Below are positions 41,974 through 45,176 of a stretch of 64,000 bases of DNA, piece by piece. The DNA is from Kofleriaceae bacterium. Lineage in GTDB: Bacteria; Myxococcota_A; Polyangia; Haliangiales; Haliangiaceae. Where the stretch lies: the NCBI GenBank assembly GCA_033763475.1, contig JANRKM010000120.1, forward strand, positions 1-64,000, written 5' to 3'. Made by a program: the position numbers and the translations under genes. The first letter of the stretch is position 1. Every line of letters starts with the position of its first letter. The notes under the pieces were generated by a model that saw only the letters and a program-made list of their open reading frames with translations, was not told the DNA's origin and searched no databases.

Positions 41974-42915
41974 CTACGGCTTGTCGACCTTGGAGACGAA
42001 GGTCTTCTCGCCCTTCCCCATGATCTCCTTGGTGTAGTACTCGGCGCCAGAGACGCCCGAGGCCTCGGCGAGCTTGAGCTTCTCGTCGATGACGGCCTTG
42101 AAGCCGGACTTGTCCATCGCACCACCGATGAACTTGCCGTTGATGAAGAAGCCCGGGGTCCCGTTGACCTTGAACTTCTGCAGCTCGGCCATGTCGCCCT
42201 GGACGAGGGCCTTGCACTCGGCGCCGTCCATGTCGGTCTTGAGCTTCGCGGTGTCGAGGCCGACTTCCTTGGCGATCGTCATCAGGTTCGCCTCGGCGAG
42301 CATCGACGGGTCACGCTTCTGCGCGTAGGGCAGGAAGCCCTTCTCCCAGATCGCGTTCTTGAACGCCTTGTACTTGCCCTGCTTCGCACCGGCGCACGCC
42401 GCGAGGTGGGCGGTGGTGGCGGTATCGGGGTGGACGACGAGGTCCTTGTACACGACGCGGACCTTGCCCTGGTACTCCTGCACCAGCTGGTCCATCGTCT
42501 CCGACGTGCGCTGGCAGTACGGGCACGCGAAGTCGAACGCCTTGACGATCGTGACGTACGCGTCCGCGGGACCGTCGACCTTGCCGGCAGCAACGTCCGC
42601 CGCGACGTCGACCGCGAACACGGCGGAGGGCGAGTGCTCCTCGCGCTCCTGCTGCTGCTGCTGCGCCTTCTGCTGCGCGTAGACCTTGCCGAGGAAGTCG
42701 AGCGCCTCGCTGTACTTCGCGAAGTTGTTCTCGAGGCGGGTCAGCCGCTCCTCGACCGTGCCGGCGTGATCGGCAGCCGCGGACGGCGCTTGCTGCGAAG
42801 CCGCCGGTGCCGTCGGCTTGATCGACGCGACGTCGTCGAGCTTGGAGTGAGCGTTCTCGCAGCCGGAGATCAGCGCGACCGCCAGCAGAATGGACTTGAA
42901 CCCGGGAGCTTTCAT
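41974..42915 (-). CDS. DsbA-like thioredoxin-fold lipoprotein (CPYC active site)
   Basis: Lipobox LISGCEN. FDFACPYCQ, the CxxC motif. DsbA-type C-terminal region NGTPGFFINGKFIGGA. Confidence 0.75.
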   Translation of the reverse strand: MKAPGFKSILLAVALISGCENAHSKLDDVASIKPTAPAASQQAPSAAADHAGTVEERLTRLENNFAKYSEALDFLGKVYAQQKAQQQQQEREEHSPSAVFAVDVAADVAAGKVDGPADAYVTIVKAFDFACPYCQRTSETMDQLVQEYQGKVRVVYKDLVVHPDTATTAHLAACAGAKQGKYKAFKNAIWEKGFLPYAQKRDPSMLAEANLMTIAKEVGLDTAKLKTDMDGAECKALVQGDMAELQKFKVNGTPGFFINGKFIGGAMDKSGFKAVIDEKLKLAEASGVSGAEYYTKEIMGKGEKTFVSKVDKP

Positions 42916-42955
42916 TACCCGGGGTTCTTGCACGCCCCGAGGCGGCTGCCAACTG

Positions 42956-43879
42956 CTACTGGTTGCGTTCGGCCGCCGACCTGAACTGCTTCACGCCCTT
43001 CCCCATCACTTCCTTGTCGTAATACTCGGCACCCGCGACGCCCGACGCTTCGGCCGCCTTGAGACGCTCGTCGATGACCTGCTTGAAGCCGCCCTTGTCG
43101 AGCGCGCCACCGATGAACTTGCCGTTGATGAAGAAGCCCGGGGTCCCGTTGACCTTGAACTTCGACAGCTCGGCCATGTCGCCCTGGATCAGCGCCTTGC
43201 ACTCCGCGCCGTCGAGGTCCGCCTTGAACTTGGCCGTGTCCAGGCCGAGCTCCTTGGCGATCGCCATGATGTTCTCCTCGCCGAGCTTCGACGGATCACG
43301 CGACTGGGCGTAGGGCGTGAACGCCTTCTCCCAGAACGCGTGATAGAAGGGCATGAACTTCTGCTGCTTCGCAGCCGCGCAGCCGGCGAGATGGGCGGTC
43401 ATCACCTGCTGCGGGTGAACGACCATGTTCTTGAAGACGACGCGAACCTTGCCGTCGTACTCCTTCACGAGCTCTTGGAGGGTCGAACTGACCCTCTGGC
43501 AGTAGGGTCAAGCAAAGTCCCAGGCCTCGACGATTGTCACCGTCGCGCTGTTCGGACCCTCGACCATGTTCTCCTTGAGGTTCGGCGCGATGTCGACGGC
43601 GAAGATCGCATCGGGATCGTGCTCCTCGCGCTTCTGCTGCTCGGCCTGCGCCTTCTGCTGCGCGTAGACCTTGCCGAGGAAGTCGAGCGCTTCGGCGTAC
43701 TTGGCGTAGTTGTTCTCGAGGCGCGTCAGGCGTTCCTCGACAGTTCCCGAGTGATCCGCAGGCGCGGCCGGCGCCGCCCCCGACGAGGTGTCCACCTTGA
43801 TATTGTCGAGCTTCGACTTCGCATCCTCGCAGCCCGCAAACACCACCAGGGCCGCGACCATACTTGCTGCGAGTTTCAT
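42956..43879 (-). CDS. DsbA-like thioredoxin-fold lipoprotein with in-frame TGA at the first active-site Cys (UPYC): candidate selenoprotein
   Basis: ORFs 43508..43999 and 42956..43468 are in the same frame and collinear with the 41974..42915 paralog. The only interruption is TGA (43508-43510) where the paralog has TGC Cys (DFA-U-PYCQ versus DFACPYCQ). Lipobox VVFAGCED. Start at MKLAAS (43879) after AGGA. Confidence 0.55.
43478..43496 (-). other. Candidate bacterial SECIS hairpin (GAGGGUC-AGUUC-GACCCUC) 11 nt downstream of the in-frame UGA
   Basis: Perfect 7-bp stem and 5-nt loop containing GU, read on the coding (minus) strand. The spacing from UGA to the apical loop is about 18 nt. Confidence 0.45.
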
Positions 43880-43940
43880 GATCGGCATCCTGCCGGACCC
43901 GAAGCCACCTGACAAGCACGCACGATGGCATGCTGCTGCC

Positions 43941-45176
43941 GTGCGCGCTGTGGTCACACTCCTACTCATCGGGACAGTCGCCTGCGGCGATGACGGCAAT
44001 ACGCCGCTCGATGGGAATGTCGACGTGGGTCCCGACGGTACGGACCTCTGCCAGCCCCAGGGCGCGACCGGTCAGTTCATCCGGCGCGCGGGCAACCCAC
44101 AGCTCTTGCCTCACCAGACCTTCACGGATGGGAAGCTCGACACCGAGATCTCCGATCCAGATGTCCGATGGACCGGCCAGCGCTGGGACGTGTTCTACGG
44201 CACCGGCCACACGACCTCGTACACCAGCAGCGACAAGATCGCGGTGATCCGCCGGGCGAGCACGATCGATCGCATGACGTGGACGATCGAGGACGAGCCC
44301 GCGCTGACGCAGAGCAGCGATCCAGGCGCATGGGATCACGCGCTGGTCGCCGCACCGACGGTGATCGAGAACCCGTCCGCGCCGCCGGACCGCCGCTACC
44401 TGATGTTGTACGCGGGGTCCGACGGCACGTTCCCGTACATGGGCTACTCGCGGCAGAACTTCCAGATCGGCGCGGCGTTCTCTGCCGACGGCGTCACGTT
44501 CACGCGCATCACCGCCGAGCAGTCGCCCCACGACAAGCCGGGCCTCGTGCTTACCGGCAGGCAGGTGTATCCGACGGCGACCAATGGCATCGTCGCCGAT
44601 CCCGACGTCGTGCTCGTCGGCGGCGTCTATCACCTCTTCTTCTCCAGCTACGCGTGCGCGGGCCCGCAGTGCCAGACCGTCGAGAACAACGGCATCGCGC
44701 ATGCAACGAGCGCCGACGGCATCACGTGGACGATCGTGGAGGCACCTGTGCGTTCCCTGCTCCGCGCGTCGGCGGACCCGAAGAGTGGTGGCGCGCAGCC
44801 GTCGGTCATCTATGACGAGGCCCGCTGCCGGTGGGAGATCTGGCTCAGCAACGATCTGCCTGTGGAGATCAGCGCACAGACCATCAACGTCACCGTCACC
44901 GCGGGCGTCTGGCACTCCTCGTCCACCAACGGCAATGCATGGGACAGCATCAACTACGCGTTCGCGCGCGAATTGGCCTGGTCGGCGAGCGAGCCCGGAG
45001 AAGGCCTCGGCATGCAGGCCGGCATCGAGGTCGGCAACAACGGCAGCGGTCGCTTGATGCTGTTCACCGGCCTCGACGACGAAAACATCCCGGTGGGGTT
45101 CACCTTGCCGCTGCGCGTCGGCGGCACTACGCCCGGCGTGCGCACGCTCGGCGTCGCAACGCGCGACCTGCCGTGA
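43941..45176 (+). CDS. Lipoprotein, probable five-bladed beta-propeller glycoside-hydrolase-like (GH43/32-like) protein
   Basis: GTG start giving MRAVVTLLLIGTVACG. Repeated segments of the WxxxxG-then-hydrophobic type (WDVFYGTGH, YHLFFSSY) seen in this fold. The family call is tentative. Confidence 0.45.
   Translation: MRAVVTLLLIGTVACGDDGNTPLDGNVDVGPDGTDLCQPQGATGQFIRRAGNPQLLPHQTFTDGKLDTEISDPDVRWTGQRWDVFYGTGHTTSYTSSDKIAVIRRASTIDRMTWTIEDEPALTQSSDPGAWDHALVAAPTVIENPSAPPDRRYLMLYAGSDGTFPYMGYSRQNFQIGAAFSADGVTFTRITAEQSPHDKPGLVLTGRQVYPTATNGIVADPDVVLVGGVYHLFFSSYACAGPQCQTVENNGIAHATSADGITWTIVEAPVRSLLRASADPKSGGAQPSVIYDEARCRWEIWLSNDLPVEISAQTINVTVTAGVWHSSSTNGNAWDSINYAFARELAWSASEPGEGLGMQAGIEVGNNGSGRLMLFTGLDDENIPVGFTLPLRVGGTTPGVRTLGVATRDLP

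Follow-up and report, generated by a model that had tools for sequence, protein, structure and literature searches.

A probable selenocysteine codon in a tandem pair of DsbA-like lipoprotein genes from Kofleriaceae bacteria

Within a 64,000-nt stretch of DNA from a Kofleriaceae bacterium (contig JANRKM010000120.1, positions 1 to 64,000; hereafter the window), two adjacent genes on the minus strand encode paralogous DsbA-like proteins, one with a CPYC active site and the other with an in-frame TGA in place of the codon for the first Cys of that motif. We find that this TGA, codon 124, very probably encodes selenocysteine (Sec) in a DsbA-like lipoprotein, a conclusion drawn from comparative sequence analysis. 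A Sec/Cys paralog pair with one UPYC copy had been proposed in a preliminary description of this DNA, and three results now speak for it: the TGA is present in 50 of 50 copies, a hairpin with compensatory changes accompanies the Sec copies specifically, and this hairpin fits the published model of the bacterial selenocysteine insertion sequence (SECIS) element, or bSECIS. The window has a G+C content of 67.7%, and the Kofleriaceae are placed in the Haliangiales, Polyangia, Myxococcota.

The predicted selenoprotein gene (42956..43879, minus strand) starts with an ATG at 43879 and ends with a TAG at 42958..42956, forming a single 307-codon frame whose only interruption is the TGA at 43510..43508. 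What gene prediction presents as two open reading frames (ORFs) is therefore one continuous frame broken by a single internal stop, as had been described. The context of this stop is EAWDFA-TGA-PYCQ in the Sec copy versus KAFDFACPYCQ in the Cys paralog, and the putative active-site motif U-P-Y-C (TGA CCC TAC TGC, 43499..43510) matches the CPYC of the paralog. Alignment of the two proteins (67% identity across 305 residues) is gap-free around the motif, and hence the TGA falls exactly on the first Cys (Cys1) of CxxC, again as first proposed. The G+C content of third codon positions is 0.85 upstream of the TGA and 0.91 downstream, so both halves appear to be coding. As an ordinary stop, TGA also ends more of the window's coding-like ORFs than any other codon (17 of 31), so the code has undergone no reassignment and recoding must be local. 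A scan of the window revealed no other in-frame TGA candidates, the sole extra match, at 2796, being an ordinary gene junction. Promoter and terminator predictions for 41300..44300 gave nothing exceeding shuffle expectation.

Relatives were sought using two protein queries, the full-length product with Cys in place of Sec and the part after the TGA only. Among the best 120 matches to this C-terminal half, 43 are short ORFs of 159-178 amino acids (aa), 68-91% identical to it, the starts of which vary with the next available start codon (LTLQELV.., MKEYDGK.., VRVVFKN.., and MFKN..). When seven of these ORFs were looked up on their contigs, nine metagenome loci (L001-L009) were obtained, all of which have a TGA at the equivalent codon. 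In each of them, a 95-133-aa ORF precedes the C-terminal ORF in the same frame at a distance of 21-39 nt, with the TGA in DFA-TGA-PYC as the link between the two. In addition, species-representative genomes were scanned with a degenerate DNA pattern for W-D-F-A-TGA-P-Y-C, which identified 39 stretches in 32 assemblies, with ∼1 chance match expected by our own estimate. These assemblies are metagenome-assembled genomes (MAGs) labelled Kofleriaceae, Haliangiales, Myxococcales, or Deltaproteobacteria, except for one 'Proteobacteria' and one 'Acidobacteriota'. The latter contig (L027, JBLMXA010000817.1) harbors a Sec gene together with Kofleriaceae-type neighbors (zinc-ribbon and 227-aa proteins), and the former (L013) harbors a Sec gene and the divergent 462-aa gene described below. 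Both contigs have probably been binned wrongly or classified loosely, and probably do not place the gene outside Myxococcota.

In total, the Cys1 codon of family members across all fetched DNA is TGA in 50 cases (drawn from the nine metagenome loci and the 39 stretches in 32 species-level MAGs), TGC in 19, TGT in nine, and TAA or TAG in none. A conserved TGA or scattered stops in relatives had been set beforehand as the outcomes that would separate recoding from decay, and what we find is TGA in 50/50 copies. Over anchored alignment blocks, the ratio of nonsynonymous to synonymous substitution rates (dN/dS) is 0.33 and 0.28 upstream of the UGA, and 0.15 and 0.19 downstream, and both sides are under purifying selection. 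A value of 0.57 from a 36-codon upstream block, which covers a variable stretch with possibly misaligned sequences, was set aside and the anchored blocks were used instead.

These data bear directly on the possibility that the Sec copy is a pseudogene, i.e. that a nonsense mutation converted TGC or TGT to TGA in a redundant paralog, with the hairpin being a GC-rich coincidence. Such a history is simple to write, since TGC to TGA takes one base change and a functional Cys paralog is adjacent. Moreover, the protein collection contains neither fragment of the gene from the MAG of this window, as would be expected had it been called a pseudogene, and the fold of the single hairpin sequence is not significant (see below). 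It is nevertheless scarcely credible. An identical TGA is found in at least 32 species-level genomes as well as in independent metagenomes, there are no other stops or frameshifts, dN/dS stays between 0.15 and 0.33 on both sides, and the hairpin is conserved with compensatory changes. Nor are the loci copies of one sequence, considering that there are 38 distinct versions of the 63-nt stretch around the UGA in addition to the divergence among C-terminal halves noted above.

Alternatively, the locus might consist of two separate genes, encoding a 123-residue stalk lipoprotein and a 170-residue C-terminal protein translated from an internal GTG or ATG. Indeed, gene callers predict exactly such an ORF pair in every relative, and one of the C-terminal fragments has been named 'oxidoreductase' by NCBI. 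However, protein-level conservation extends over the 13 codons that separate the TGA from the first possible start (PYCQRVSSTLQEL), which include the second active-site Cys, and the internal start differs between relatives. The resulting C-terminal piece would be without a CxxC motif, first β strand, and export signal, and the split would cut through one Pfam domain. We consider two genes highly improbable.

The predicted bSECIS apical hairpin, GAGGGUC-AGUUC-GACCCUC (43478..43496, minus strand), begins 11 nt past the TGA and consists of a 7-bp stem and a 5-nt loop with GU at loop positions 2-3, with a predicted folding energy of -11.5 kcal/mol. Its sequence, coordinates, and spacing had been noted earlier and all check out. 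Although the hairpin bases formed no part of the genome search pattern, 50/50 Sec copies carry GAGGGUC-RGUNN-GRCCCUC at equal distance from the TGA, with the loop reading RGUNN in every copy. Third codon positions are 0.98-1.00 conserved within the hairpin versus 0.55-0.84 on its flanks, and codons that are rare in the window are fixed within it, namely AGG (2.3% of Arg codons) and AGT (3.3% of Ser codons). Likewise, all 50 copies have GCT (5.6% of Ala codons) right before the UGA, although the pattern permitted GCN. On the other hand, the loop tolerates residue changes that keep the structure, from SS to GP, SL, or GA.

We assessed covariation using the 38 distinct sequences of the 63-nt stretch. 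Pairing within the hairpin is preserved in 99.6% of cells, with compensatory G-C to A-U double changes at two different pairs (in L008 and L038) and wobble-preserving single changes in seven sequences, all single changes being of the wobble kind. None of 500 shuffles matches the observed pairing, and sliding the register reduces it to 29-57%. The hairpin is specific to Sec copies and absent from Cys paralogs: the mean minimum free energy (MFE) of the region is -12.8 kcal/mol in Sec copies versus -6.1 kcal/mol in Cys paralogs (26 distinct Cys sequences; Mann-Whitney p = 3e-9). The published bSECIS model has a loop of 3-9 nt, an upper stem of 4-16 bp, a UGA-to-loop distance of 16-37 nt, an MFE ≤ -7.5 kcal/mol, and a G among the first two loop bases, with G or U as the usual next base (PMC13188914). 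The hairpin lies within every one of these bounds, with a loop of 5 nt, a stem of 7 bp, a spacing of 18 nt, and an MFE of -11.5 kcal/mol, and the loop of Sec copies starts with A-G-U or G-G-U, which places a G at position 2 and then a U, in line with the model. The agreement with this model, the specificity for Sec copies, and the compensatory changes together support the earlier suggestion that the hairpin is a bacterial SECIS.

Two other pairings were considered. Because the GACCCU of the 3' arm recurs in UGACCCU, the 5' arm could pair with the UGA codon instead. The corresponding alternative hairpin, UGACCCU/AGGGUCA (43497..43510 with 43489..43495), is paired in 95.9% of cells. It was rejected as the selected structure because one of its pairs is broken in 10 of the 38 sequences without compensation and both compensatory events favor the downstream arm. 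A possible lower helix, GCUUGAC/GUCAAG (43455..43460 with 43507..43512), in which GUCAAG lies ∼40 nt downstream, displays no covariation and has its central pair broken in 15/38 sequences. One of these two pairings or a codon-context effect may account for the invariant rare GCT before the UGA.

Several points weigh against the interpretation that UGA-124 encodes Sec. First, neither the window nor ∼0.4 Mb of related loci contains selA, selB, selD, or tRNA-Sec, as assessed by tblastn with Escherichia coli SelA, SelB, and SelD (NC_000913.3; E < 1e-3) against the window and all fetched loci, and by ARAGORN, which detected no tRNA of any kind in the window and 46 loci, and hence no tRNA-Sec nearby. 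Second, the fold of the single sequence is no better than chance (66 nt: z = -0.92; 28/200 shuffles equal or better), so that it is comparison with relatives that has to make the case for both the hairpin and the TGA. Third, the covariation support amounts to two compensatory events, because the hairpin is nearly invariant. Fourth, 39 of the 50 TGA copies were found with a pattern requiring TGA and cannot tell how often orthologs without TGA occur; the evidence free of this bias comes from the protein-based look-ups and from the tree presented below. Finally, searches of Rfam, at the gathering threshold for the whole window and at E ≤ 10 for 43380..43600, returned only chance matches on the wrong strand. 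This last result is uninformative, and to our knowledge Rfam holds no general bacterial SECIS model.

The lack of these genes in the DNA covered would also suit a read-through process that does not involve selenium, with the hairpin aiding a near-cognate tRNA (Trp or Cys), or with termination as the default and full-length protein as a minor product. Stem-loops just past a stop codon can promote read-through, and the UGA of selenoprotein genes is read at a low level as Cys or Trp when selenium is short, so there is general precedent for either behavior. Still, we judge this explanation unlikely. The UGA stands in for the single residue for which Sec is the well-known substitute, whereas Trp at this place would abolish activity. 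In spacing, loop size, and loop GU, the hairpin fits the SelB-type SECIS model, and lineages without TGA have Cys codons at this position and have lost the hairpin. Moreover, a cultured relative is a listed Sec user: Haliangium ochraceum, which NCBI taxonomy puts in the Kofleriaceae, appears together with other myxobacteria among selenocysteine-utilizing organisms (PMC5029168 Table S2), which is indirect, order-level support for Sec use. The strong nucleotide-level selection acting on the SelB-type hairpin also suggests a working Sec machinery in these bacteria, since it would otherwise be hard to explain.

The translation of the Sec gene opens with MKLAASMVAALVVFAGC, a predicted signal peptide with a lipobox (VFAG-C, Cys17; 43829..43879, minus strand), which predicts an exported, lipid-anchored protein. 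A Cys after a hydrophobic N terminus is retained in orthologs, which share the same overall architecture, and C17 is invariant in the family alignment. Downstream of a flexible, low-complexity linker, there is a conserved helix (TVEERLTRLENNYAKYAEALDFLGKVYAQQKAQ), assigned to approximately residues 47-85 (43625..43741, minus strand; dN/dS 0.33) as a helical stalk by homology with a model of the paralog. It is followed by a DsbA-like thioredoxin-fold catalytic domain (residues 103-271; 43067..43573, minus strand), which was delineated by Pfam, PDB, and fold matches. The Pfam matches are PF13462 (Thioredoxin_4; 1.1e-25) and PF01323 (DSBA; 4.5e-18). By sequence, the closest solved relatives are 3gyk (4e-18, 32% identity), Corynebacterium DsbA/TsdA, BdbD, Wolbachia α-DsbA2, and ScsC, with PDB matches including 3gyk, 4pwo, 3eu3, and 4xvw.

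For structural comparison, we used an AlphaFold2 monomer model of the 67%-identical Cys paralog, which has a mean predicted local distance difference test (pLDDT) score of 86.6. In this model, residues 1-46 are disordered, two long helices span residues 54-92 (pLDDT 83-94), and a DsbA fold comes after. Using Foldseek, the catalytic domain matches 3gyk and BdbD (target-normalised TM-score 0.82-0.83), and the stalk together with the domain matches Caulobacter ScsC, Proteus ScsC, and Salmonella BcfH (7rgv, 4xvw, and 7jve) over 240-275 columns with E values of 1e-10 to 1e-8. The model thus predicts an N-terminal helical stalk preceding the catalytic domain. Invariant residues in the family include the lipobox Cys, C124 (Sec)-P-x-C127, T246-P247, C167, and C227, the last two of which probably form a structural disulfide. 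The stalk and the Thr-Pro loop lean weakly toward a ScsC/DsbG-like isomerase or reductase role.

The mechanism that we propose is as follows. Codon 124 would be read as Sec, the hairpin 11 nt downstream acting as a bacterial SECIS whose GU-containing apical loop would recruit SelB and Sec-tRNA(Sec) to a ribosome paused at the UGA. The pre-protein would be exported, lipidated at Cys17, and face the periplasm, where its stalked DsbA-like domain would, as expected from its family, perform thiol-disulfide exchange on envelope proteins. The selenolate would be the attacking group, forming a selenenylsulfide with Cys127 or with substrates, and the benefit of selenium could be quicker exchange and protection from irreversible over-oxidation.

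The Cys paralog (CPYC; 313 aa; 41974..42915, minus strand), also a predicted lipoprotein, starts 40 nt past the stop of the Sec gene and is identical to an NCBI protein named 'MAG: thioredoxin domain-containing protein [Kofleriaceae bacterium]' (P0001). By sequence, it appears to be the ordinary sulfur version of the same enzyme. A Cys paralog adjoins many Sec copies but not all, the Sec copy in L003/L004 being without one. In a neighbor-joining tree of catalytic domains (without support values), most Sec copies form one large clade apart from their adjacent Cys paralogs, and a second small Sec group (L018 and L031) lies beside its own Cys neighbors. Three Cys lineages are nested within the large Sec clade (L011/L013, L046, and L015/L044), and these nested copies (L011 999, L013 1829, L046 6115, L015 7584, and L044 3067) suggest replacement of Sec by Cys after duplication. 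The Cys copies of L011/L013 have a different strong hairpin at the equivalent place (∼-12 kcal/mol). Some genomes contain two to three Sec copies, with Sec-Sec-Cys tandems in L012 (3338 and 4355, oriented on the minus strand) and L029 (1876 and 2907). The second L029 copy reads DFG-U-PYCQRISSVL, which is outside the reach of the DNA search pattern, and more divergent Sec copies therefore probably exist. A maintained Sec lineage with occasional Sec/Cys exchange is the pattern of genuine selenoprotein families (PMC1794560). We regard the Kofleriaceae/Haliangiales family as a long-standing Sec lineage that is actively maintained and in which Cys has occasionally replaced Sec.

Directly downstream of the gene pair, on the same strand, are genes for an extracytoplasmic function (ECF) sigma factor (PF07638; 41398..41955) and, directly after it, a Ser/Thr kinase (PF00069; 39764..41401). 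Envelope functions are often under the control of ECF sigma factors, and the preliminary description had seen in this arrangement selenium-dependent control of envelope redox state. We do not adopt this sigma-linked reading because the neighborhood is not conserved: the pair adjoins the Sec gene in this window only, whereas the 48 related loci, among them that of the closest relative (L001, with a 10-kb flank), all lack it at this place. That the Sec gene belongs to a selenium-dependent envelope stress circuit under the sigma factor and kinase is thus quite unlikely, and the conserved neighbors are on the opposite side. There, recurrent neighbors are a divergently transcribed 462-aa protein, a 179-aa zinc-ribbon protein, a 227-aa protein, and polyphosphate kinase (ppk), which may reflect conserved gene order rather than function. 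The most consistent of them is the 462-aa protein (43788..45176, plus strand), which has no Pfam match. Its homologs, 42-75% identical, are found in 27/48 loci, one of them with a faint Glyco_hydro_32N match.

MopE-type putative metal/copper-binding proteins (PF11617) are encoded a few kb from the DsbA-like genes both in the window (38141..39316, plus strand) and in a distant locus (L005, 3995..5050). Together with the copper-tolerance naming of ScsC-type relatives, these proteins offer a weak lead toward a role in copper stress. The window also encodes, at 36411..38207 (plus strand), a 598-aa protein with collagen triple-helix repeats and DUF7151, which is unusual for a bacterium.

A more far-reaching idea, which we regard as tentative and rather doubtful, is that the stalked Sec and Cys lipoproteins make up a selenium-tuned periplasmic redox module peculiar to Kofleriaceae/Haliangiales. 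In such a module, the Sec enzyme could serve as a highly active form, resistant to over-oxidation, that is produced under selenium supply. The UGA would then double as a built-in selenium sensor through its read-through, with termination yielding only a 123-residue stalk lipoprotein, and the co-transcribed Cys paralog would be a selenium-independent backup. Alternatively, the Sec and Cys proteins could co-assemble through their near-identical stalks into mixed oligomers. If the module exists, the two to three Sec copies of several genomes would mean that an unusually large amount of selenium is spent on folding envelope proteins.

Returning to the interpretation of UGA-124 as Sec, its most immediate consequence concerns annotation. 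As anticipated in the preliminary description, automated pipelines mishandle the Sec copy, the relatives being called as two ORFs of ∼125 and ∼170 aa. In L002/L048 (GCA_028287135.1, JAQBQE010000032.1), the 167-aa C-terminal fragment is recorded as 'oxidoreductase' (P0127) and the 124-aa N-terminal fragment as a separate gene. A full-length query against 5.8 billion protein clusters matched Cys-type homologs only, at 67% identity or less, the Cys paralog being the closest full-length product. A whole gene clade, carried by no fewer than 32 species-level MAGs and by dozens of metagenome contigs, has thus been split in two or dropped by annotation. A dedicated profile and SECIS model would mend these records and flag Kofleriaceae/Haliangiales as selenium users. 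The protein would extend the short list of extracytoplasmic selenoproteins by a UxxC oxidoreductase that is exported, lipid-anchored, and equipped with a stalk, and its carriers are soil and water myxobacteria, unlike the anaerobes usually described with large selenoproteomes. Sec/Cys tandems, Sec-Sec tandems, and Cys lineages inside the Sec clade provide a natural series on the benefit of selenium to a DsbA-type enzyme. UxxC selenoproteins of the DsbA-like and DsbG-like kinds date back to 2005-2006 and are well established, as is the bSECIS model; current understanding is not overturned. The finding is useful for annotation and for Sec-versus-Cys enzymology, and will not surprise the specialist.

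With respect to known elements, the hairpin resembles the SECIS of E. coli fdhF/fdnG and the bSECISearch consensus in being a coding-region stem-loop directly 3' of the UGA, with a small apical loop (G then U), a spacing of 16-37 nt, and an MFE < -7.5 kcal/mol. Its sequence bears no resemblance to the E. coli elements, and a lower helix containing the UGA is possible but without covariation. We found nothing relevant in the literature on selenium use or selenoproteins in Kofleria, Kofleriaceae, or Myxococcota. UxxC DsbA-like selenoproteins as such were first described from the Sargasso Sea metagenome in 2005 (PMC1088965) and later found in Anaeromyxobacter dehalogenans, Desulfovibrio desulfuricans, and Desulfotomaculum reducens (PMC1794560), with form 1 of the DsbA-like selenoprotein known in 41 organisms by 2016 (PMC5029168 Table S3). 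The Kofleriaceae protein is like form 1 in its PF01323 match (66.2 bits versus a gathering threshold of 25.6), UxxC motif, bSECIS right after the UGA, and Cys homologs, and one form 1 carrier, Anaeromyxobacter, is itself a myxobacterium. By the broad tabulated criteria (PF01323 and UxxC; PMC13188914), the predicted protein falls under 'DsbA-like form 1'. Form 1 was originally defined on COG2761 (PMC1088965). The Kofleriaceae protein is, on the other hand, a predicted exported lipoprotein. It matches PF13462 more strongly, and its homologs carry the Joint Genome Institute (JGI) label 'protein-disulfide isomerase', which together suggest a subfamily different from the COG2761-type members. We take COG2761 proteins to be FrnE-like and mostly cytoplasmic.

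A second comparison is with the DsbG-like UxxC selenoprotein, which has been equated with NCBIfam NF041057, the 'Rcas_1661 family thioredoxin-like (seleno)lipoprotein' (PMC13188914). The members named in two reports are Symbiobacterium and, going by the name of the profile, Roseiflexus (PMC13188914; PMC1794560). The Kofleriaceae protein shares with this family a thioredoxin fold, a lipoprotein signal, and Sec as the first residue of UxxC, and profile positions 3-246 of 247 align with its residues 8-271. However, the Kofleriaceae proteins have a conserved helical stalk of ∼40 residues and are ∼60 residues longer than the profile. The Sec copy scores 70.1 bits and the Cys paralog 67.1, versus a curated cut-off of 190, which makes the Kofleriaceae protein a relative of NF041057 rather than a member.

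Finally, among characterized proteins, ScsC (Proteus mirabilis 4xvw/5id4 and Caulobacter 7rgv) and BcfH (7jve) likewise have a long N-terminal helix before a DsbA-like domain with a Thr-Pro loop, but they are 18-21% identical to the Kofleriaceae protein and have Cys instead of Sec. Both are trimeric isomerases that are soluble and not lipid-anchored. The catalytic domain is matched best, in both sequence and fold, by BdbD (Bacillus subtilis 3eu3), MdbA/TsdA (Corynebacterium 4pwo and 7unn), and 3gyk (Silicibacter), which are PF13462-type extracytoplasmic disulfide oxidoreductases, all with CxxC and none with a stalk or Sec. Taken together, these comparisons point to a new, unannotated clade of a known kind of UxxC selenoprotein, predicted to be stalked, lipid-anchored, and specific to Kofleriaceae/Haliangiales.

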